Of a stretch of 64,000 nucleotides of DNA, positions 2,701 to 42,398 are shown piece after piece (positions within the stretch are counted from its first letter, which is position 1; each line of letters starts with the position of its first letter). A model generated the notes under the pieces. The model did no database searches, was not told the origin of the DNA, and saw nothing but the letters and a program-made list of their open reading frames with translations. The stretch is from Verrucomicrobiota bacterium. Its GTDB lineage: Bacteria > Verrucomicrobiota > Verrucomicrobiia > CAIQCK01. The translations under genes were made by a program, and so were the position numbers. The stretch lies in NCBI GenBank assembly GCA_026397915.1, contig JAPLTX010000061.1, positions 94,731 through 158,730 of the forward strand. The letters are read 5' to 3'.

Positions 2701-3987
2701 CTATGCCGCGCCGCCCAGCTTCGTGAGGATGGTCACCAACGGCAGGAACAACGCCACAACAATGACGCCAACCACCACGGCCAGGAACACGATCAGCATC
2801 GGTTCCAACAGCGAGGTGATACCGGCGACGGCGTTGTCCACTTCCTCGTCGTAGTTGTCGGCGATCTTCATCAGCATCTCCGGCAACGCGCCGGTTTCCT
2901 CGCCAACGTCAATCATCGAGACCACCATCGGCGGAAACACCTTGCTGGCCTCCAACGGCCGCACCACCGATTCGCCCTCCTTCACCGAGTCGTGCACCCG
3001 CTGCACGGCGTCGGCGATGACGCGGTTGCCGGAAGTTTCCTTCACGATCATGAGTCCTTGCAGGATCGGCACGCCGCTGGAGATGAGCGTGCCGAGCGTC
3101 CGCGTGAACCGCGAAATGCCGACCTTGCGGATCATCGGGCCGAAGGCGGGCATGTTGAGTTTGAAGTTGTCCCAGAGCCTGGTGATCGCCGGCACCTTCT
3201 TGATCAGGAAGTTGAACAGCACCACGAACAGCACCACGCCGCCACCGACCACCAGCACGTTTTCGCGAATCAGCTTGCTGGTATTCATCACGGCTTGGGT
3301 CAGCGGCGGCAACGGTGCGCCTTCGAGCAGGTCTCTGAAGATGTCCTGGAACTTCGGCACGATGTAGGTCATCAGGAAGAACAGGATCGAGATGGCAATG
3401 GTGAGCACGACGATCGGATAGACCGACGCCGCGAGGACTTTGCCGCGAATCTTCTGCGCCTTCTCGGCGAACTCCGCCAACCGCGTCAGCACGACTTCGA
3501 GCACGCCGCCCGCTTCGCCGGCGCGGATCATGTTGATATAGAGCCGGTCAAACACCCGCGGGTGGTGCTGCATTGCCTCGGACATCGTCGAGCCGCCTTC
3601 GACCGCCTCGGCCAGCGCGGTGATGGTCTTCTTGAGGGCGGCATTGCGTTCCTGGCGCTCCAGTGTGCGCAACGCGCGCAGCAACGGCAGGCCGGCGTCA
3701 ATGAGCGTCGCCAGTTGGCGCGTGAAAATGGTGAGGAGCTTCTTGTTCACCCGGTCCGTAATGCCGGGGATGTTGATCTCCATCTGCTGCCAGCCACCCT
3801 TTTTGCCGCCCGCCGCGCTCGCCGCCTTGGACTTGCGGCCTTTGCCGGAGCCGGCCTCGGTGATCTTGGTGGGGAAATACCCCATCTCCTTGAGCTTGTT
3901 AATCGCGCCGGCGGGACTGTCTGACTCCATCTCGCCAGAAGTCTCTTTGCCGCGGGCATCTACTGCGGTGTATTCATACTTGGGCAT
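2701..3987 (-). CDS. gspF: type II secretion system protein F / type IV pilus assembly protein PilC
   Basis: 428 aa, two GspF repeats with three TM segments, strong family resemblance across full length. Confidence 0.9.
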   Translation of the reverse strand: MPKYEYTAVDARGKETSGEMESDSPAGAINKLKEMGYFPTKITEAGSGKGRKSKAASAAGGKKGGWQQMEINIPGITDRVNKKLLTIFTRQLATLIDAGLPLLRALRTLERQERNAALKKTITALAEAVEGGSTMSEAMQHHPRVFDRLYINMIRAGEAGGVLEVVLTRLAEFAEKAQKIRGKVLAASVYPIVVLTIAISILFFLMTYIVPKFQDIFRDLLEGAPLPPLTQAVMNTSKLIRENVLVVGGGVVLFVVLFNFLIKKVPAITRLWDNFKLNMPAFGPMIRKVGISRFTRTLGTLISSGVPILQGLMIVKETSGNRVIADAVQRVHDSVKEGESVVRPLEASKVFPPMVVSMIDVGEETGALPEMLMKIADNYDEEVDNAVAGITSLLEPMLIVFLAVVVGVIVVALFLPLVTILTKLGGAA

Positions 3988-5878: not shown

Positions 5879-6900
5879 TCACTTCATACCCAGTTGTTGC
5901 ATCATGGTATCGGGATCCTGCGCGGTGGTCAGCATCTCGCCGTAGTCAATGATGCCTTTCCGGTAAAGCTCCACCAAATGACTGTCGAGCGTGAACATGC
6001 CGTGTTTCGCGCCGGTCTGGATGTCGCTTTGGATGCGGAAGGTCTTGTTGTCGCGGATCAGCGCCTGGATGGACTGCGTGGTGATCATCACCTCGAACAC
6101 CGCCACGCGCCCCTTGCCGTCTTTCTTCGGCAGCAGCAACTGCGAGATGACCGCCTTGATCGAGCTGGCGAGCTGCGTGCGGACCTGCTCCTGCTGCGCC
6201 TGGTGTGCAGCGTGGCGAAGACCAAGTGGCCCGTTTCCGCCGCGGTGATGGCGGCCTCCATCGTTTCGAGGTCGCGCATTTCACCGACGAGAATCACATC
6301 GGGGTCCTGCCGCAAAGAGCGGCGCAACGCCTCGGAAAACGAGGTCACGTCCACGCCGATCTCGCGCTGGGTGACGATGCTCTTCTTGTTCGAGTGGTAA
6401 TACTCGATCGGATCCTCGACGGTGATGATATGGACGTCGCGCTCCTCGTTGACAACGTTCAACATCGAGGCCAGCGTCGTGGTCTTGCCGGAACCGGTCG
6501 GACCCACCACAAGGATCAAACCGCGCGGCAGGTAGAGCAAATCCTTGATGCTGGGCGGCAGGCCGATCTGATCCAGCGTCATCATCTTCGTCGGAATCTG
6601 CCGCATCACCAGCGCGAAGTTGCCGCGCTCCTTGAAAATGCTGACGCGGAACCGCGCCTTGTCCTGATAAGCAAAACCGAAATCGCTGCCGCCGACCTCG
6701 CGCGTCCGGCGCAGGTGTTCTTCGCTGGTGATGGATTTTACCAGCCGCTCCGCGTCCTCCTGTGTCACCGGCGGCACTTGTGTCAACGTCACCAGCGAGC
6801 CGTGCAAACGCACCACCGGCGACAATCCAACCCGGATGTGAAGGTCGGAGCAATTCTCCGCTACGACCAACTCCAACAACTGGTCCATTCGGACTTTCAT
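5879..6900 (-). pseudogene. pilT: twitching motility ATPase PilT, disrupted by ~47-nt internal deletion causing frameshift
   Basis: N-part (6190..6900) reads through Walker A/B to [10 protein letters not shown] then shifts frame; C-part [38 protein letters not shown]...IRDNKT continues in another frame to stop at 5879; the segment just after [10 protein letters not shown] that other PilT proteins carry (e.g. P. aeruginosa TSAAKTIDRVVDVFP, recalled from memory) is absent. Confidence 0.7.
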
Positions 6901-29186: not shown

Positions 29187-29230
29187 AGCTGAAAGCTGAG
29201 AGCTGAGAGCTGAGAGCTGAGAGCTGAGGG
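29187..29230. repeat. tandem heptamer array (AGCTGAR)n in G-I intergenic region
   Basis: agctgaaagctgagagctgagagctgagagctgagagctgag; one of 8 such arrays confined to the prophage. Confidence 0.8.
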
Positions 29231-31986: not shown

Positions 31987-32178
31987 TCATCGCGCGGCCT
32001 CCTGTGTTTTGAACGCCGCCAGTATTTTCCTGAGTGCGGTCTTCTCGGCGTAGAAAACCGTTGACCGCGACAATCCCATCATCCGCGCAACCGTCCTGTG
32101 GCTGCGAATTGGTCCGAGGGCATTCGCCAGGTCTCGCGTTGCTGTTGCGGATGCTCCCCATTTTGTGGTCCTGTTCAT
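31987..32178 (-). CDS. small HTH DNA-binding protein
   Basis: 63 aa; TVARMMGLSRSTVFYAEKTALRKI helix-turn-helix; ATGA overlap with 3D-domain gene stop. Confidence 0.35.
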   Translation of the reverse strand: MNRTTKWGASATATRDLANALGPIRSHRTVARMMGLSRSTVFYAEKTALRKILAAFKTQEAAR

Positions 32179-32677
32179 CGCGCCAGTTCCAGTCCCCCAT
32201 CCGCTCTGCGGTAGGTTCCCGCCGCGAGGCGCTGGCCGGCGGCGATGATCTCGGCCATGCGGCGCTCGAACCGCTCGTCGTCGAGCTTCCGCTGCCACTC
32301 GCGGCGCGTGAGGATCGTCACCGGCATCCATCGCCAGCCGAATCGCTTTGCCTCTTCGTGTGTCGCGAAGAGCAGGTCGAGGCGGTTTGCGCCTTTGATG
32401 TCTCGGCCGGTGTCGTCGGCGCGGTTCCAACGGCCGTTGACGTGGACCATCGAGCCGAGCGGGATGCGGCGAGGGTCCACGGCCACGATCTGGCCGACCG
32501 CCTGCCGCCCCGTGGCCGTGAGGCCGCAGGCATTCGGCCCGCAGCAGATTCGGCACGGGCAATAGGCGGTGACGCGGACCCAGCGGGTCGAGGCGGCGAG
32601 GGCGGGAGATGGGAGATGGCAGATGGCAGATAGGAGGAGCAGGGCAGTCCCCAACTTCCAGCTTCCAACTCCCATCT
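32175..32677 (-). CDS. secreted 3D-domain (MltA/RlpA-like) cell-wall hydrolase, candidate endolysin
   Basis: 167 aa from MGVGSWKL...ALA/AS signal peptide; VRVTAYCPCRICCGPNACGLTATG...GSMVHVNGRWNRADDTG 3D domain. Confidence 0.55.
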
Positions 32678-33159: not shown

Positions 33160-33567
33160 TCAGAGGTTCAACAGCTTTTGTTCGCGGAGGGCGTTGGCCT
33201 TCGCGGCGGCGAAGAGTCCGCGCGCCTCGAAGTCGGAGCAGGCGCGATAGACGCCGCCGGCGGAAGCGGCGGGAGTTGGGAGATGGGAGTTGGGAGTTAG
33301 GGCCGGAGATTCCACCCTCCCATCTGCCAACTCCGATCTGCCATCTGCTTTACCCACGAGCACCACGAAGCCGAGTTGGTAGAGTTCCGTGACGCGGGGG
33401 CGCATGTCCACGAGAAACAGCGGGTTGTTGGGCCGCATCTTCACCGCCAGTTCCTTCGTCGTGCAAGGGCCGTGGACTTTGAGCGCCTCCAGAACTTCGA
33501 GGCGCAGGTCCACAAGGTATTTGGCCTTGAGGCTGGCGAAGGTTTCGTTCCTAAAATCAACGGGCTT
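33160..33567 (-). CDS. hypothetical phage DNA-binding protein (winged-helix-like N-domain); C-terminus reads through a tandem repeat
   Basis: MKPVDFRNETFASLKAKYLVDLRLEVLEALKVHGPCTTKELAV. Confidence 0.3.
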   Translation of the reverse strand, partial: KPVDFRNETFASLKAKYLVDLRLEVLEALKVHGPCTTKELAVKMRPNNPLFLVDMRPRVTELYQLGFVVLVGKADGRSELADGRVESPALTPNSHLPTPAASAGGVYRACSDFEARGLFAAAKANALREQKLLNL

Positions 33568-33771: not shown

Positions 33772-34344
33772 TCAGAACGGGATGTCGGCGGTTAGGGCTG
33801 CCGGCTGAGGGCTGAAAGCTGAAGGCTGAGAGCTGACAGCTTTGCGCCGATTCCTCACCGTGTAAACGAGACACCAGACCTGACGCTCGGTTGCCTCGGC
33901 CAGGCTGCACTTGAACTGCCTGCGGCAGATGGCGGCGGCGTAGCTCTCGTGCAGGCCGCGCTCGCGGAGGGACTCGCGCAGCTTGAACATCGCCAGCCGG
34001 ATCGGCTCGGTCGCCACGCGTTCCTCCGCGCGCCGCGCCGCCGCGGCGTTGCCTTTGAGCATAAGGAACCGGCCCTCGATGAGTTTGTATTCGCGCTGTG
34101 TCGCGCCACGCAAAGACGTGTAGCCGCACGCAAACATTTGCTGGGTGTGCCGCCAGTCGTCCAACTCGCCCTGGCTGGCGGCGGGCCGGCCATAGACCTC
34201 CTCGAACGCCTCGCGCGCTAGGATGCAGAGGTGCGCCTTCTGGCCGTTCTCGAGAGGCGCGCTGGGCGACGGCACGGGCCGTCCGCTGCCGTGGCGAAAC
34301 ACGGCGCGGAAGTCGTCGCTCATGATGTCGGCGGGGATGATCAT
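33772..34344 (-). CDS. GemA-like (Mu gp16 family) regulatory protein, tentative
   Basis: 190 aa; KAHLCILAREA...DDWRHTQQMFACGYTSLRGATQREYKLIEG pattern resembles Mu GemA family. Confidence 0.3.
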   Translation of the reverse strand: MIIPADIMSDDFRAVFRHGSGRPVPSPSAPLENGQKAHLCILAREAFEEVYGRPAASQGELDDWRHTQQMFACGYTSLRGATQREYKLIEGRFLMLKGNAAAARRAEERVATEPIRLAMFKLRESLRERGLHESYAAAICRRQFKCSLAEATERQVWCLVYTVRNRRKAVSSQPSAFSPQPAALTADIPF

Positions 34345-34375
34345 ATTGAAGCTCCCAGCTTTCAGCTCTCAGCTT

Positions 34376-34630
34376 TCAGTTCTCATTTGCGGGAGTGATG
34401 GAGTGTTGGAGCGATGCTTGTTCCAACGCGCGCGCAATTCTATCCACCGCGTCGGTTACAAGGTCGTGATATGAAGCCTGCCTTCCCGCCAAGGGAACAA
34501 CGCAAGTCTTTGAGACCCCGCCTCCGGCGTTGGTGATGGCCACGTAGATTACAACTCCGTTTTCTTCTAACGCCGTCTTCGCCAGCTCCTGGCCAAGGTT
34601 GAAGCAAGTGTTTATATACACAGCCTTCAT
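34376..34630 (-). CDS. small hypothetical phage protein
   Basis: 84 aa from MKAVYINTCFNLGQ; ATGA coupling to upstream gene. Confidence 0.25.
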   Translation of the reverse strand: MKAVYINTCFNLGQELAKTALEENGVVIYVAITNAGGGVSKTCVVPLAGRQASYHDLVTDAVDRIARALEQASLQHSITPANEN

Positions 34631-34995
34631 GATTCCTCCTCGCACTGCTGGCAGATGCAGTTGTTCCCGCCGGGGTTGCAGCAGGCGGTGGAGCCTGGCA
34701 GGTTGCAGCGCGGGCATTCATAGACCGCGTGGATCGCGGGGTCGAATGTCATGCCGCACTTCGGGCACTTGGCGTCCGCTGATTGCTCGGCGATGATCTG
34801 GCCGAGCGTCTTCCACGGATAGCCCTGCAACACCGGCACGAGCCGGATGTCAACGCTGCGCTCCGTCAGAAACTTCGCGGCCTCCGCGAGCGTGTCGCAC
34901 TGGTGGACCACGCGCCACGATCCGCTCCCTTGTTTGATCTGCCAGCGGTCCTGCCCGACGCGTTTGCCGATGCGATATTCTTCCTTCACGCTGCC
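34627..34995 (-). CDS. zinc-ribbon phage protein (CPKC...CPRC)
   Basis: GTG start overlapping Gam-like stop; C-terminal double CxxC. Confidence 0.3.
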   Translation of the reverse strand, partial: GSVKEEYRIGKRVGQDRWQIKQGSGSWRVVHQCDTLAEAAKFLTERSVDIRLVPVLQGYPWKTLGQIIAEQSADAKCPKCGMTFDPAIHAVYECPRCNLPGSTACCNPGGNNCICQQCEEES

Positions 34996-35513
34996 TCCTG
35001 TGCCGGCGTCTCGGCGGCGGTTTCGGGCTTGGGGCGGATGAAGAACTGTTCGTCCTGGCAGAACTGGATGCCGAGGGCGGTCTGCTTTTCCGGCGTGAGC
35101 GTCTCGCGGTCGGCCAGCAGCGCGTCCTTGTCCAGACTGAGCTTGGCGCGGACATAGACTTTGCTCCACGAGGCTTTGACGGCGCGCTTGATGACGTCGG
35201 CCCACTTGATCTTCTTGTTGGCCGTCTCCACGCGGTGCGGCGTCATCTCGAAGCCGAACACGGCGAGGCTGGTCTCGCGGCTCTTCTTGTCGGTGAACAG
35301 CCCGCCACGGTTGGCCGCGCAGAAGGCGAGGATGGTTTCCTCGTCGAGCGTGATCTCGGCTTCCTTCTTTGTGATGCCGGCTTGGTGCTGTTTCTCAACG
35401 GCGGCGACCTCGGTGTCCTTGGCGGCTTTGAGCGTCGTCAGTTCGATGCGTTTGCGCACGACGGCGGCAACAGCCGTGTCGAGCGATTCGGGTGATGTGA
35501 TTTTTAGATTCAT
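34986..35513 (-). CDS. gam: host-nuclease inhibitor protein Gam-like (Mu Gam family)
   Basis: 175 aa; N-terminal coiled coil then ...FCAANRGGLFTDKKSRETSLAVFGFEMTPHRV... as I recall the Mu Gam core (WCEANRDELT...VSWRVRPPSV; motif recalled from memory, not checked against a Mu Gam sequence). Confidence 0.5.
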   Translation of the reverse strand: MNLKITSPESLDTAVAAVVRKRIELTTLKAAKDTEVAAVEKQHQAGITKKEAEITLDEETILAFCAANRGGLFTDKKSRETSLAVFGFEMTPHRVETANKKIKWADVIKRAVKASWSKVYVRAKLSLDKDALLADRETLTPEKQTALGIQFCQDEQFFIRPKPETAAETPAQEAA

Positions 35514-35529
35514 AGTTGGCAGTTTCCTT

Positions 35530-35928
35530 TCAGGTTTGGGAGTTGGGAGTTGGCAGATGGGAGTTGGATGGGGCCGGGGCGGTTGTTTGCAGTTGGGAGA
35601 TTTCGCTCGCGTAGCGCGTCTGGTAGCGGTGCAACATGCCGAACGCCCCGGCGAGACGTTGGCGGGCTTGCTCCAGTTGCAGCAGCTCGTCTTCTTCCAG
35701 GAGCGTGCCGACGGCGTCGGACTCGTAGAGGCGCTCCTCGATGAGGAGAGCAGCGGCCACCATTTTCGCGGCGGCGGCCGTGGCGCGGTCCTGCGGCAGC
35801 GGGGAGCGGGGGGCGGGCGGAACGGGCGGGCAGGAGAAGTTCCAAAGCCGGATGAACAGCTTTGCCATCAGCACTCCACCAGCCACCGCGCACACGGCCA
35901 ACAAGATAGATGCAATCCAAGGGTTCAT
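35530..35928 (-). CDS. hypothetical phage membrane protein
   Basis: 132 aa; N-terminal TM; start within repeated RBS-start cassette. Confidence 0.25.
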   Translation of the reverse strand: MNPWIASILLAVCAVAGGVLMAKLFIRLWNFSCPPVPPAPRSPLPQDRATAAAAKMVAAALLIEERLYESDAVGTLLEEDELLQLEQARQRLAGAFGMLHRYQTRYASEISQLQTTAPAPSNSHLPTPNSQT

Positions 35929-36125
35929 CGTGTTGCCTCCGATTTGGAACGGATGTTTACGGCCGTCATCAGACAGAATTCCACCCGGATAGCGGCCTCC
36001 TCGAAGTCCTTGAGGAACTTCCGGCCTTCAGTGTCGAGTTTGTTGTTCTTGATCTCGCGCAGCACTGCGGTGAGTTGGTCGTAGGCGAGACGGAGCCTGA
36101 ATGCCTGAACGTCGTTGATCTTCAT
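35925..36125 (-). CDS. small hypothetical early protein ending ...SEATR
   Basis: start MKINDVQAF in RBS-start cassette; ATGA overlap. Confidence 0.25.
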   Translation of the reverse strand: MKINDVQAFRLRLAYDQLTAVLREIKNNKLDTEGRKFLKDFEEAAIRVEFCLMTAVNIRSKSEATR

Positions 36126-36355
36126 CGTGTTGCCTCCGATGTCTGTGACGGAACTGGCAAGGGGCAATAATCCACAAATGTGATCTCCCCGGTTATGAAG
36201 CCGCTTGAAATCTTGAAGTCGGCTGATCTAAAGCCGCACGTGCAGCCGTGGAATTTTCGTTCGAGCCTCCGAGCCTCTTTCTGACTTCCCATGCCGCACA
36301 CAGCCACGGTGAACGCGGACAGTTCCATCTCTTCGCCAAGAATAATGGCTTTCAT
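36122..36355 (-). CDS. small hypothetical early protein ending ...SEATR
   Basis: 77 aa; cassette start/stop overlap. Confidence 0.25.
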   Translation of the reverse strand: MKAIILGEEMELSAFTVAVCGMGSQKEARRLERKFHGCTCGFRSADFKISSGFITGEITFVDYCPLPVPSQTSEATR

Positions 36356-36552
36356 CGTGTTGCCTCCGGTTGAGATTCCGTGTAGAGCCTGGTGATCTGT
36401 TTCTTAACCGTTCTGAACCCATTATCCGCGATCTTCAGCGCCAGCGTTTCCGCATTTGGGATGCCGAGCGGAGGCAGCCAAACATCAAGCTCCAGCGGGT
36501 TGAGCTTCCCACCGCGGAACAACTCGATATATAGATGCACTTCAGTTTTCAT
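36352..36552 (-). CDS. small hypothetical early protein ending ...PEATR
   Basis: 66 aa; cassette start/stop overlap. Confidence 0.25.
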   Translation of the reverse strand: MKTEVHLYIELFRGGKLNPLELDVWLPPLGIPNAETLALKIADNGFRTVKKQITRLYTESQPEATR

Positions 36553-36771
36553 CTACGCAGCCTCCTGTGTTTTGAGAAAGCGAGCGCCGTCCTGTCGAAG
36601 ATTCGAGTGCGAACGAAACCCGCAACTCGCCGTGTCCCACATCGCTGACACGAATCGGAGTCCACGCTTGAAGAACCGGCGCTGTCTGGCGTTGCCGCGA
36701 ATGTGGCACCCGTCCGAATGTCCAACGTCGTTGAATGGCAATGAAGTGTTTGCGGTGATGGTCTGTCTCAT
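36553..36771 (-). CDS. small hypothetical early protein
   Basis: 72 aa; ATG overlaps MuB-like stop (ATGA). Confidence 0.25.
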   Translation of the reverse strand: MRQTITANTSLPFNDVGHSDGCHIRGNARQRRFFKRGLRFVSAMWDTASCGFRSHSNLRQDGARFLKTQEAA

Positions 36772-37871
36772 CGTGTTGCCTCCGATTTGGCGGTGATCTC
36801 GCGGGCGATGTCGTCGAGCGTTGCGCCCTTCCTCAGCGAGATGGCGAGCGGCTTGATCTTCACGGCCTCGCGCACGAGGATGTTGACGAACTGTCGGAGG
36901 TCAATGGCCTCGTCTCCGTGGTCGTGCGCCACGCGGCGGCAGACGCGGTTGACGAACTTGAAGTAGCCGTGCGAGAGCGCAAACGGCTCGATGGCGGCGA
37001 CGGCCTTCTCCAGCACGCCCTTCCCGAACGCGATCCGGTCCTTGAACATCAACTCCACGTCGCCCTGTTCGATGACGCTGAGGTCAATGCGCTCGTGCAT
37101 CCGATTGTGCGTGAGTTGCTGCGCCTCGAAGTAGCCCTTCGACACCTCCAGCCGCTGCATGAGCGTGTTCTGCGCCGAAACAATGAACTCGCCCGGTGTC
37201 TGATTCACCAGCGTCTTGACGAGGTTCAACATGCGCGGTGTCAGGTGATGGGCCTCGTCAATGCCGATGCAGAGGCGCTTCTTGTTCAGGTGCTCGACGA
37301 GCTTGCGCATCCGCTGGGTCGTGGAGACGGGCATCTCGAACTGGACGTTCTTGTCCGGCTCCTTGGGCTTGAAGCCGAGCGCGCCGAGAATCCGCCCCAG
37401 CATCTCGTGATCGGTCCACGTCTCGTCGGCCTCGGTGAACGTGACGCGCACCGGATACTTCATCTCCAGGGACTGGCGGGCCTTGGTCTTGCCGCTGCCG
37501 CTCGGCCCCTGCATCCAGATCAGCCGCGTGTTGTCCTGTTCGCGCATGATCTCCAAGAACGCCACCCGCAGCCGCATGCACGGCGTGAGATCGTGGTTGA
37601 TCGGCTCTTCGTCGGGGGCCGACTTCTCCAGGTTGTCCATCGTGCTGGCGACGGTGCGATAGCGCAGCACCCAGCTTTCGAGGTCGCCCGCCGAGTATTC
37701 CCCGGCGAGGATGGCGTTGAAGGTCTTGGCGCTGCCGAGGTCGGCGAACTCGCGCGCGAGCTTGTCGCGCGTCCATCCTTTGTCGAGTTGGTAACGCTCG
37801 GCGCGCTGGGCGAGCGCGCGCAACTCCGCGCGCACCGGGTCGATCTGCGGGTCATTGTGGGTCGTATTCAT
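36768..37871 (-). CDS. MuB-like AAA+ ATPase, transposition target DNA activator
   Basis: 367 aa; N-terminal HTH then Walker A MQGPSGSGKTKA; immediately downstream of transposase as in Mu A-B. Confidence 0.7.
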   Translation of the reverse strand: MNTTHNDPQIDPVRAELRALAQRAERYQLDKGWTRDKLAREFADLGSAKTFNAILAGEYSAGDLESWVLRYRTVASTMDNLEKSAPDEEPINHDLTPCMRLRVAFLEIMREQDNTRLIWMQGPSGSGKTKARQSLEMKYPVRVTFTEADETWTDHEMLGRILGALGFKPKEPDKNVQFEMPVSTTQRMRKLVEHLNKKRLCIGIDEAHHLTPRMLNLVKTLVNQTPGEFIVSAQNTLMQRLEVSKGYFEAQQLTHNRMHERIDLSVIEQGDVELMFKDRIAFGKGVLEKAVAAIEPFALSHGYFKFVNRVCRRVAHDHGDEAIDLRQFVNILVREAVKIKPLAISLRKGATLDDIAREITAKSEATR

Positions 37872-37888
37872 TGTAGCTCTTTCTGGTT

Positions 37889-39880
37889 TCAGGTTTCGAT
37901 CAGGTCACCGCGGGCGCGGGCTTCGGCCTCGCGTTTGGCGATGTAATCGGCCGCGGCAGTGCGGTCGAAAGAGACGCGGGAAACGGCCGGGGCCGTTCCT
38001 CGCGTTGAAAATGTGGCCGGCTCGGTATCGGTGTCTCTCGCGTTTGCGGCGGACTCGCCGAGCCGGCTCACCGTGTCGTGGTGTGTAAGTGGAGATTGGA
38101 GTTTGGAGATGGCGACGCGGCTGACGTTGCCCCGGCCGTCGCTGTCGAGGTGGACAACGGCGGCGCGTCCGGTGCTCTCGATGGCCGCGAAGCTCGAGCG
38201 CACCTGGGCGGTGCGGAGCTTGCGCGCGGCGGTGGCCGGCGAACGGTAACCCTCGCAATCAACGAACTGCGGCCCGTCGGCACTCCAGGGAGCGATGCCG
38301 ATGAACTGGAACCGCTTCCAGTTCTCGCGATTCATCGGGCGCGTTTCGTTATTGAAGAGCGCACAGCCGGCCTCCGGCGCGAGCGGGTCGAACCGCGCGA
38401 TGACGCGGTGGCCGCGCTCGATGAACGGAAAAGCCGCCGTCGCCACGTGGAACCGAAACGGGCGCGCATAAGGCGCAACGGAAACCTGCACATGGCCCGC
38501 GAGTTTGGTGCCGACGCCGACCTCGCTGATGGTCGGCTTGAAAAACCAGAACTCCTCCTCGCTCACCGCCGGCAGCGATCCGCCGCGCGCGGCCATGTCG
38601 CGCTCCCACGTCACGTCGGGAGCTTCCGCTTTGAGGCCGTCAACCTTGCGCGCCCGCTTGTTCAGGAACTGGCAGCCGGCGACAAGCTTTTGGATCAGCA
38701 CCTCGCCCCACGGAATGAAGCCGCACTTGGCCGGATCGGCCTTGCCCTTGTTCACGGCCATCATGTCATCGGTAGGCTGCTCGTATTCGCCGCGCGTCTT
38801 GCCGATGCGCACGCCATGCACGCCCATGATCTTGTGGAACGGCCGAAACGAGGACTCGATGCCGCCCTTGGCGTTGGAGGAGAAAACGTGGTCCACGGGG
38901 ATGACGCTGGCGATGCCGCCCCAGCGGTTGCCGGCGTCGTCAATCTGAATACCGTCGAGCGCGTTGTTTTCCCAGCGACCGCGTTCGTCGCGGAAACGGC
39001 CAAACCGCCCCCAGCGCCGCGTGAGAAGTTCCTTGAACCGCGCGATGTCCTCGGCGCGGTAGCTGTCCGCAAAGCGCGCGATGGGATAGACGCCGAGCCA
39101 CTTGCCGCTGCGCACGTCGCGCGCCATCAGGATTTGACGCCCCACGCGCCAGTAGCCGTCCGGGTCCATCCAGAAAAACGGAACGTCGGTTGACACGTCG
39201 TCAAACTCGATGATGTCCCCGCTGTTCACAGGCACCCATGCGCCGTGGTCGTCGTAACCGTAAAAGCCGCGGCGCACGCTGAAGACGATGCTCCGCAGCG
39301 CGTCGCGGCTGCGCGCCGCTGCCATTTCCTCCTGCGTCACGCGCACGTCGCGCATGATGCTTTGCGGGTATCGGCCCGTCAGCCGGTTCGCGGCGAGGGC
39401 CTCGCGGACCTCCGGCCGGCACACCGGCGAGTCGGCCATCAACTCGATGCCCATTGGCACGCTCTCGGTCTTTAGGACAAACGTGCGGGCGAGCTTCTTC
39501 TCTGCGTCGTTGAGGTTCACTTTTTTCTTTCGCCCGCAGTTCTTGTATTGCCGGCCGAGCTTTTCCTCGCCGCCGGCATCGAGCAGCCGCGCGTAGCGCA
39601 ACAGCGTGCAGTGCGGCTTGCCGAGTATCCGAGCCGCCTCCGCCGCGCTCGACGCCATCGGCGGCTGGCCGTTCTCTCCGGGCTTTTGCAGCGCGCGCCA
39701 CTCGCGCACGAGCGACGCGCGGCGTTGCTTCCAGGCGTTGTCCAAGGACTGCGGAGTCGGAACCGCCGCCGCGGCGTCGCTGGAAACAATCGCGCCCGGA
39801 GGTCGCGATCCACCTGTAGCGGCGGTCTCTGACCGCCGATCCGGCGCGGGCGAGGAGTTCGCCCCCGCGCAGTGTTGCAT
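37889..39880 (-). CDS. Mu-type DDE transposase (MuA-like)
   Basis: ORF 37889..40132; central rve/DDE core (SGDIIEFDDV..., ...VIPVDHVF...), N-terminal HTH; start uncertain (39880 or 39658); ~590-664 aa. Confidence 0.75.
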   Translation of the reverse strand: MQHCAGANSSPAPDRRSETAATGGSRPPGAIVSSDAAAAVPTPQSLDNAWKQRRASLVREWRALQKPGENGQPPMASSAAEAARILGKPHCTLLRYARLLDAGGEEKLGRQYKNCGRKKKVNLNDAEKKLARTFVLKTESVPMGIELMADSPVCRPEVREALAANRLTGRYPQSIMRDVRVTQEEMAAARSRDALRSIVFSVRRGFYGYDDHGAWVPVNSGDIIEFDDVSTDVPFFWMDPDGYWRVGRQILMARDVRSGKWLGVYPIARFADSYRAEDIARFKELLTRRWGRFGRFRDERGRWENNALDGIQIDDAGNRWGGIASVIPVDHVFSSNAKGGIESSFRPFHKIMGVHGVRIGKTRGEYEQPTDDMMAVNKGKADPAKCGFIPWGEVLIQKLVAGCQFLNKRARKVDGLKAEAPDVTWERDMAARGGSLPAVSEEEFWFFKPTISEVGVGTKLAGHVQVSVAPYARPFRFHVATAAFPFIERGHRVIARFDPLAPEAGCALFNNETRPMNRENWKRFQFIGIAPWSADGPQFVDCEGYRSPATAARKLRTAQVRSSFAAIESTGRAAVVHLDSDGRGNVSRVAISKLQSPLTHHDTVSRLGESAANARDTDTEPATFSTRGTAPAVSRVSFDRTAAADYIAKREAEARARGDLIET

Positions 39881-41558: not shown

Positions 41559-42025
41559 GGTTGCTCCGGTAGGGCGCGACCGCTGGGCGCGCCGAGGGGG
41601 TCGGATCGGCCGGCCCAGCGGTCCGTCCCTACCGCCGCCGCGCTCGTTTCCACGATGAGACTCCACAGCCGGTCCACGATCTGGCGCGTTTCGGTCCAGC
41701 GCGTGGCGGCGGCGTTGTGCGCGAGGGCCAGCGCCTCCAGCTCGCCGCCGATGTGCTCCAGACCGTCATCGCGCTCGATGCGCTCCAGTAGCGCGCGCAG
41801 CCCGCCCCATCGGCCCTGCATCTCGCGGCACTCGCTGATCAGGCGCTTCAGTTCGATCTGGCGAGGGGAAAGGGCCGTCAAGGCTGAGGGCTGAGGGCTG
41901 AAGGCTGAAGGCTGAAGGCCGACCGATGAGGGCTGAAGGCTGAGGGCTGAAGGCTGAAGGCCGACCGATGAGGGCTGAAGGCTGAGGGCTAAAGGCTGAC
42001 CACTGATCGCTGGCTTGGTGTTCAT
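41555..42025 (-). CDS. hypothetical protein whose N-terminal region is encoded by heptamer tandem repeats
   Basis: ATG overlaps upstream stop (ATGA); LQPSSVG repeats from 7-nt DNA repeat; C-terminal helical region. Confidence 0.2.
   Translation of the reverse strand: MNTKPAISGQPLALSLQPSSVGLQPSALSLQPSSVGLQPSAFSPQPSALTALSPRQIELKRLISECREMQGRWGGLRALLERIERDDGLEHIGGELEALALAHNAAATRWTETRQIVDRLWSLIVETSAAAVGTDRWAGRSDPLGAPSGRALPEQP
41878..42000. repeat. long tandem heptamer array (GGCTGAR)n with 54-nt higher-order duplication
   Basis: ggctgagggctgaaggctgaaggccgaccgatgag unit repeated twice. Confidence 0.8.
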
Positions 42026-42398
42026 CGGCTCAACTCCTTTTCGATGCGGTCGAGTTCGCCGCTGATAACCGCGACGCCCCGCCGGATGGAGGCCAGCGCA
42101 TCGGACGCCGCACGATGAGAGCAGAGGCGGCAACGCTCTGCTGGGGGCGCAATGCAATGTTCCTTGCGAACTTCGGCATCGAACTTGGTGCTGATAATGG
42201 CCCATCCGAAGATCGGCGGGAGACTGCCGTCTGAGGGAACAAAGAGTCTCGACCAACACTTGTGGCAAAATGAGTTCCGCGATTCTCCTCGCAGATAACA
42301 ACCGGGAATCCCGGCCAGCGTGGTTAGCGAGTCCAACCGTGGATTCGTGCGGCTCGTCTCCAAACCGCAGAGCCAGCAACGTAGTTGAGTTTTCATCG
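42022..42398 (-). CDS. zinc-finger hypothetical protein (CWLC...CHKC...CRLC)
   Basis: 125 aa from MKTQLRCWLCG; ATGA overlap with Ner-like stop. Confidence 0.3.

Follow-up and report, generated by a model that had tools for sequence, protein, structure and literature searches.

A repeated stop-start junction between small early genes of a Mu-like prophage from a Verrucomicrobiota bacterium

A 64,000-nucleotide (nt) stretch of DNA from a Verrucomicrobiota bacterium (a Verrucomicrobia metagenome-assembled genome; assembly GCA_026397915.1, contig JAPLTX010000061.1, positions 94,731 to 158,730), here called the window, contains a Mu-like prophage in which one short gene junction is repeated almost verbatim. 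The junction, referred to below as the cassette, occurs four times between the gene for a MuB-like transposition ATPase and a conserved gene, orf132, each time at the end of one gene and the start of the next. What could account for such a repeat? The explanation that we favor, with a probability of about 0.62, is that a coupling junction has been duplicated as genes were inserted into, or lost from, the boundaries of variable slots in the operon, with the junction probably also acting as a substrate for that recombination.

The cassette and its copies

The 19-nt string TCATCGTGTTGCCTCCGAT (plus strand) occurs exactly at 35925-35943, 36122-36140 and 36768-36786, and a fourth copy, at 36352-36370, has a single mismatch (...CCGGT). 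All four copies lie within 865 bp, and the chance expectation for any 19-mer match with up to three mismatches in the window is 0.01. The core, GGAGGCAACACGATG, is confined to the four cassette sites in the 64 kb, with two mismatches allowed. The outer copies (J1 and J5 in Table 1) begin 843 bp apart, enclose four inserted genes and have 23 nt in common, CCAAATCGGAGGCAACACGATGA; the matches of the two inner copies to J5, at the orf66b/orf132 junction, extend over 20 and 18 nt. When the junctions are aligned with 40 nt of flanking sequence, the shared block has sharp edges and the flanks are unalignable, giving a unit of 17–23 nt. An earlier note on this DNA, made from the sequence alone, had described a fixed 23-nt cassette at 35926, 36123, 36353 and 36767. 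The four-fold repeat is real, the fixed length is not, and each of those positions is off by one (the copies begin at 35925, 36122, 36352 and 36768).

All of the early-region genes named here are on the minus strand, and in the mRNA sense the cassette reads AUCGGAGGCAACACGAUGA. As the earlier note had observed, every copy is C-terminal coding sequence, Shine-Dalgarno (SD) sequence and overlapping stop/start at once. Specifically, at all four junctions (MuB/orf72, orf66a/orf77, orf77/orf66b and orf66b/orf132) the co-directional genes overlap by 4 nt, with the ATG of the downstream gene overlapping the TGA of the upstream gene (ATGA), and a GGAGG lies inside the upstream gene with a 7-nt spacer before that ATG. 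Three of the four upstream proteins end in SEATR and the remaining one, orf66a, ends in PEATR, so that the identical C-termini previously reported extend to three proteins; that MuB itself ends in KSEATR is confirmed at J1. The 15 other SD-bearing overlap junctions in the same prophage have sequences other than the cassette, and the ATGA and GTGA couplings with other sequences that the note had listed do exist (ParB-like/90 amino acids (aa), Gam/Zn-ribbon, 3D-domain protein/next gene, and DUF5131-radical SAM/148 aa). Since these junctions share the same logic with different sequences, the logic is ordinary, and it is the verbatim repetition that is unusual.

Table 1. Positions of the early-region genes and of the junctions between them
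Feature	Coordinates	Strand	Description
MuA-position protein, 747 aa	37889..40132	-	transposase by gene order only; homologous family in relatives
MuB-like AAA+ transposition ATPase, 367 aa	36768..37871	-	PF13401, phrog_296; anchor gene, 3' end is the cassette
J1	36768..36790	-	23 nt, CCAAATCGGAGGCAACACGATGA on the minus strand; MuB tail K-S-E-A-T-R and orf72 ATG over MuB TGA
orf72	36553..36771	-	small gene, no family match, GC 0.57
J2, non-cassette junction orf72/orf66a	36550..36569	-	CACAGGAGGCTGCGTAG, then ATG; orf72 tail T-Q-E-A-A
orf66a	36352..36552	-	small gene, no family match, GC 0.52
J3	36352..36370	-	ACCGGAGGCAACACGATGA, 18/19; orf66a tail P-E-A-T-R and orf77 ATG over TGA
orf77	36122..36355	-	small Cys-containing gene
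J4	36122..36140	-	19/19; orf77 tail S-E-A-T-R and orf66b ATG over TGA
orf66b	35925..36125	-	helical hairpin, confident prediction
J5	35925..35947	-	23 nt, same as J1; orf66b tail K-S-E-A-T-R and orf132 ATG over TGA
orf132	35530..35928	-	conserved backbone gene
Gam-like gene, second anchor	34986..35513	-	PF07352, phrog_491

Could the repeat or the overlaps be artefacts? The window is matched at 100% identity by six public contigs, each from a different sequencing run, making an assembly artefact unlikely. Independent gene calls on these contigs use the same ATGA-overlapping starts, so arbitrary start choice is no concern, and homologue alignments confirm the ATG of orf66b and that of orf132. 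The start codons chosen in the earlier note thus agree with independent calls and with homologue N-termini.

The cassette has few features beyond those of a translational junction. RNA folding around the copies gives no stable structure (z from -0.07 to +0.85) and no sequestering hairpin. A promoter scan found one promoter-like site in 8.3 kb, which is the chance expectation, and none at a cassette; a terminator scan stayed at chance level, with no terminator-like site at the cassettes. Rfam has no match at the cassettes, and two sub-threshold matches to snoRNA families (eukaryotic- or archaeal-type) fall elsewhere in the region. As for an attC-type inverted repeat, the cassette holds only a 4-bp self-complement, and none of the 25 longest listed inverted repeats lies at a junction.

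These results bear on the possibility that the 19-mer is a cis-regulatory operator, kept for recognition by an RNA-binding protein or small RNA of the phage or host, such as a translational repressor of early genes. Strict identity over the SD sequence, spacer and start is the pattern expected of an operator. There is also a 16/19 reverse-complement match to the cassette upstream, at 42100-42118 (minus strand), which has the same direction of transcription and could pair with the cassettes; the chance expectation for such a match is ~0.013. However, this is a single borderline match inside a coding region (42025-42396), the copies lack both a conserved structure (z about 0) and an Rfam match, and the motif is absent from all other early genes. 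Moreover, the repeated sequence in relatives changes from slot to slot, as copying would predict more readily than a shared operator. An operator is improbable as the reason for the repeat.

The MuB 3' end as source

Where does the cassette come from? MuB homologues at 35–45% identity mostly end in E-x-x-[ST]-R, and in most of 26 MuB loci (25 relatives and the window) the MuB stop is part of an ATGA or GTGA overlap. Because this tail is conserved across the MuB family, MuB is the source of the cassette and the small genes carry copies. Indeed, these family comparisons largely establish that the cassette is MuB's own ancestral 3' end.

Conservation of the protein tail could instead mean that the peptide is what matters: (S/P)EATR might be a functional tag, either a recognition tail borrowed from MuB, using or competing for a MuB partner, or a degradation signal. 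The terminal Arg is kept in six of the nine MuB homologues whose stop shows no 4-nt overlap, so the tail is partly a protein feature in MuB. However, all synonymous sites are identical among the cassette copies, which argues for DNA copying and not for peptide selection, and homologues of orf66b have unrelated tails. Furthermore, the tail shared in the other variable slot, described below, is KEAA, matching Gam; tails therefore track the junction rather than a common partner. It would be surprising if a peptide tag were the explanation.

A different way to obtain identical junctions without copying is convergent selection, in which four junctions independently reached one optimal reinitiation sequence for the host. 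A scan of metagenome_contigs with the 19-mer (AYCGG...) returned 19 single-copy matches in unrelated contexts, none of them in a related prophage, and all have a context like that of a ribosome binding site and ATG, suggesting that the 19-mer serves many unrelated organisms. In addition, related phages repeatedly reach GC-rich solutions such as GGAGGCCGCGCGATGA at non-homologous junctions. Nevertheless, the copies are identical at 10 positions outside those fixed by GGAGG and ATGA, including the spacer CAACACG, which is not GC-maximal. Being unlike the GC-rich default of relatives, these extra positions point to shared descent and not convergence. Neither does convergence fit the different sequences of the 15 other SD-bearing overlap junctions, the clustering of the copies at consecutive junctions instead of along the operon, or the 23 nt common to the outer copies. 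We consider convergence very unlikely.

The genes between the copies

The four small proteins encoded between MuB and orf132 have no mutual similarity (BLASTP E-values above 0.2, six-sequence database), and local alignments of their DNA, including those with the 3' part of MuB and the 5' part of orf132, are no better than alignments of shuffles. The genes between copies are thus unrelated to one another in both protein and DNA. The inserted block is also compositionally distinct, with GC 0.52–0.57 and GC at third codon positions (GC3) 0.59–0.73, versus GC 0.62–0.70 and GC3 0.78–0.90 for the flanking genes. All four small frames are open (chance ~2e-5 in shuffles). A homology search with orf77 against 5.8 billion proteins matched only itself, and neither tblastn of the four small proteins against the phage collection nor a search of viral_contigs with the orf66b family alignment gave a match. 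The orf66b model is a helical hairpin (pLDDT 90), for which a fold search returned generic helical hairpins (best E 0.24) and no informative match. A further small gene follows Gam at 34376-34630 (minus strand; 84 aa, GC 0.53, GC3 0.61), similar in composition to the insertions after MuB, which suggests another acquired accessory gene.

Slots and junctions in related phages

The early order transposase, B, small genes, Gam is Mu-like and is the same in relatives, which also carry Phage_Mu_F. A gene-family map of nine loci gives the backbone as ParB-like, x, MuA-like, MuB, slot 1, orf132 family, Gam, slot 2, F1, F9, F2. Slot 1, between MuB and orf132, holds no gene in locus L155, one in L124 and four in the window. 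MuB in L155 is coupled directly to the orf132 homologue, and the orf132 family alignment begins at Met1-Asn2.

Homologues of one gene in the window's slot 1 are found in slot 2 elsewhere. In L155 and L159, the third gene downstream of Gam belongs to the orf66b family (P0055, 48% identity; P0056, 40%). At DNA level, similarity to the window sets in precisely with the ATG and is lost gradually ~30 nt short of the stop codon; the upstream junctions differ, and each gene has the tail of its local junction (KSEATR, DAKEAA and ANTPV across the family).

Slot 2 has its own repeated junction. Four consecutive junctions of L155, starting from the Gam stop, read AAGGAGG(C/T)GGC(A/G)TGA (KEAA or KEVA, then stop), and L159 has three consecutive identical junctions of this type; the junction repeated after Gam in relatives, AAGGAGGCGGCATGA, encodes KEAA-stop. 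The window version of this junction is the Gam 3' end, CACAGGAGGCAGCGTGA, with QEAA-stop and a GTGA overlap. The one boundary in the window's slot 1 that is not a cassette, J2, resembles the window's Gam junction and the first L159 junction (CAGGAGGCCGCGTAAATG). Given that the Gam and orf72 tails (AQEAA and TQEAA) and their junctions are closely similar, J2 is of the Gam type. Across these loci, the junction that is repeated in a variable slot tends to be the one at the 3' end of the conserved gene preceding that slot.

The junctions also coincide with breaks in homology. L155, L124 and L126 have backbone DNA identity of 74–87%, and in every pairwise comparison homology stops 1–9 nt after the MuB and Gam stop codons. 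The junctions are therefore mosaic joints, in line with the defined mosaic boundary that the earlier note had proposed. An 801-bp insertion in L155 versus L124 that looked cassette-bounded is not counted, because its right flank is not orthologous: the 50-nt match there consists of the cassette and a heptad repeat, and the two downstream proteins are non-homologous. Separately, a 183-aa gene family changes side of Gam, lying before it in L159 (19-570) and after it in L126 (2619-3170).

The earlier note had proposed looking for the same cassette in related Mu-like prophages. An exact 19-mer scan of viral_contigs gave no match, and a 17-mer scan of genome_contigs returned at least 120 chance singletons, which say nothing either way on the exact cassette. 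None of the other phages and genomes examined yielded the exact cassette, so that expectation failed in its literal form and comparison with relatives is by analogy only. What does recur at gene junctions in relatives is the principle, with other junction sequences.

Similarity of adjacent junctions

How general is the repetition of neighboring junctions? MuB as a single query had no match in viral_contigs, and a MuB alignment query added 23 viral contigs. In 31 non-redundant loci, coupled junctions were called with a uniform heuristic and the 12 nt before the start codon were compared. Pairs differing by at most 2 nt make up 12.4% of adjacent junctions less than 800 nt apart (10.4% with the window excluded), 1.1% of junctions farther apart in the same locus, and 0.6% of junctions from different loci. 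Near-identity is thus ~20 times commoner among adjacent junctions than between loci. Most of the 31 loci have no junction repetition, and none has repetition as long or exact as that of the window. Judged from these junction sequences, the same process evidently operates elsewhere in this phage group.

Only one of the 20 similar adjacent pairs has similar flanks. This pair, at 5944 and 6296 in L165, consists of near-identical junctions with near-identical 150-nt upstream flanks (local alignment score 290). It reflects the recent duplication, in tandem, of a single small gene, which is what unequal exchange between junctions should produce.

The L165 case raises the question of whether the window's block could have arisen from a single ancestral small gene that was duplicated in tandem along with its junction, after which the bodies diverged while constraint preserved the junctions. 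Two of the window's genes are of exactly equal length (66 aa), as duplication might predict. Set against this are the complete lack of protein or DNA similarity among the four genes, or to the adjoining parts of MuB and orf132, and the presence of orf66b orthologues in another slot of other phages, without this tail. Bodies without similarity next to perfect junctions would require very strong selection or gene conversion. Tandem duplication is accordingly a doubtful origin for the block, and an improbable one.

A model for junction duplication

How might a coupling junction be duplicated as genes come and go? On the early transcript, the cassette would present an in-frame SD sequence (GGAGG read as ..G GAG GCA, Glu-Ala) 7 nt upstream of an AUG overlapping a UGA. 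By analogy with characterized coupled pairs, a ribosome finishing one gene would be expected to restart on the next by termination-reinitiation. Promoterless small genes would then be expressed, and downstream genes would remain coupled to MuB. The ancestral arrangement was in all likelihood MuB, junction, orf132. Four unrelated lower-GC small genes now occupy this slot, and three of them have gained a copy of the MuB junction together with the last 4–6 residues of MuB. The copies probably arose by recombination at the junction itself, and we infer that the cassette had a causal role. There are several possible routes. First, unequal crossing-over could occur between phage copies. Second, an excised circle of gene plus junction could insert in the manner of Campbell. 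Third, template switching could occur at the GGAGG...ATGA microhomology. By any of these routes, each event would duplicate the junction, and every gene would keep a working start.

Several observations weigh against duplication of the junction by recombination. No relative was found that is close enough to share the exact cassette, and no insertion or deletion bounded by it was seen; all public prophage copies are 100% identical, leaving no polymorphism to use. Host recombination of the RecA type would have little to work with in 19–23 nt of shared sequence, and no recombinase of the phage was recognised near the cassettes. The inserted block opens with orf72, a gene whose end is not a cassette. 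Finally, some junction similarity in this GC-rich group is convergent, with GGAGGCCGCGCGATGA recurring at non-homologous places.

A stronger version of the model would make the junction an active, dedicated gene-capture site, a translational analogue, in transposable phages, of the integron attachment site. New material, either excised units of a gene with its junction or the result of template switching in replicative transposition, would preferentially enter at the 3' junction of MuB or Gam. If this were true, the result would be expression-ready arrays whose members all inherit the C-terminal peptide of the anchor gene, and the inherited MuB tail could even be functional in the captured proteins. 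We regard dedicated capture as unlikely.

Comparison with known systems

Junction duplication of the kind favored here shares features with several known systems. Experiments in E. coli and Haloferax have demonstrated coupling through ATGA overlaps, with a contribution of the internal SD sequence (Huber et al. 2019, PMC6728339), and the lambda ninR region is a dense chain of ATGA-linked genes (Kroger and Hobom 1982, as cited in PMC8022706). Both are like the window in having co-directional 4-nt overlaps with the SD sequence within upstream coding sequence, constraining its C-terminus, and ninR also consists of short, dense, dispensable-looking early genes in a temperate phage. However, each junction there has its own sequence, whereas here a 17–23-nt junction is verbatim at consecutive boundaries and unrelated proteins carry the C-terminal peptide of the anchor gene.

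The closest analogue is the PeSL cassette of T4-type phages. PeSL cassettes are ~100 bp long, intergenic and transcriptional, consisting of an early promoter and a stem-loop terminator, such that each gene is a separate unit (Arbiol et al. 2010, PMC2839356; PMC4122927). They are repeated expression signals that flank ORFans, and they have been proposed as recombination linkers that keep gained or lost genes expressed (PMC2839356; PMC4122927). The two have in common a short conserved expression signal repeated between the ORFan genes of a variable region. Here, by contrast, the element is 17–23 nt, lies within coding sequence and is translational, and neither a sigma-70-type early promoter nor a stable stem-loop or terminator was found in it. 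Variability of the PeSL type is seen by analogy only: the slot holds 0, 1 or 4 genes (L155, L124 and the window) and homology ends at junctions, in relatives none of which has the exact cassette.

Other comparisons concern recombination. Modular evolution of lambdoid phages involves short linker or boundary sequences and relaxed recombination at short homology (PMC2327257, PMC3945230). Mosaic joints at gene boundaries, with short common sequences as proposed crossover sites, are shared with the window, but the lambdoid linkers are mostly between genomes, whereas here the repeats are in tandem within one genome and their origin, the anchor 3' end, is identifiable. Pseudomonas Mu-like phages also carry small low-GC accessory genes in a few early-arm slots (PMC4378225). 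No flanking common recombination target was found there, and the authors described the means of acquisition as mysterious (Cazares et al. 2014, PMC4378225); the slots described here, unlike those, are bounded by repeated junctions. Integron arrays are similar in that promoterless small genes are stacked by an anchor, each followed by a repeated boundary element. They differ in that no attC-like imperfect palindrome was identified here, nor any integrase among the 20 early-region proteins scanned against Pfam, and in that expression would be by translational coupling and not by a Pc promoter alone. In the limited literature covered, we came across no account of a translational junction that is repeated and imposes an anchor's C-terminal peptide on captured genes.

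What are the implications of junction repetition? First, the acquisition of small genes by phages at exact boundaries is still mostly explained by random illegitimate recombination and selection. Here the boundary element is visible and its source can be named. Several related phages show such a repeat slot by slot, and members of a single gene family (orf66b) are caught in two slots with different tails. This provides a concrete, testable model for gene insertion in a translationally coupled operon. Second, the pattern suggests how phages may slot new genes into an operon with expression undisturbed. Third, for annotation, identical C-terminal peptides on neighboring phage ORFans can be by-products of a junction and are then not evidence of homology.

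Other features of the early region

The 747-aa protein in the MuA position has no sequence match in Pfam, PHROG or PDB, and a DDE transposase (MuA) is not recognisable by sequence. Homologues of 600–756 aa are found at this place in every relative, and the protein may be a transposase that is either highly divergent or of another kind.

Downstream of the 3D-domain protein, the gene model is ambiguous. A junction-like sequence, ACAGGAGGCCGCGCGATGA, at 31990 (within 31987-32200, minus strand) lies either inside a 110-aa open reading frame (ORF) or between ORFs of 63 aa and 40 aa.

Tandem repeats of 7 or 8 nt occur in nearly every non-overlapping gene gap of the prophage (19725-45272), in both orientations. 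Examples are at 41880-41999, 35536-35567, 33271-33348, 33794-33841, 34350-34385 and 29187-29228, and the units include AAGGCTG (17 copies), TTGGGAG, GGGAGTT, GCTGAAA, AGCTGAG and GTTGGAGT. The repeats extend into gene ends, producing tails such as SNSHLPTPNSQT. Relatives carry heptads of their own (CAGAAGC, CCCACTG and AATCCAA).

MuB and Gam each start after a gap that contains a second and distinct conserved start region, (A)GAAAG(G)AGCTACC, followed by 0–3 nt and the ATG. It is located at 37872-37890 and 35514-35535 in the window, 5985-6000 and 7583-7598 in L124, 417-432 in L126, and 3407-3422 and 4797-4812 in L155, and is common to relatives at 40–45% protein identity.

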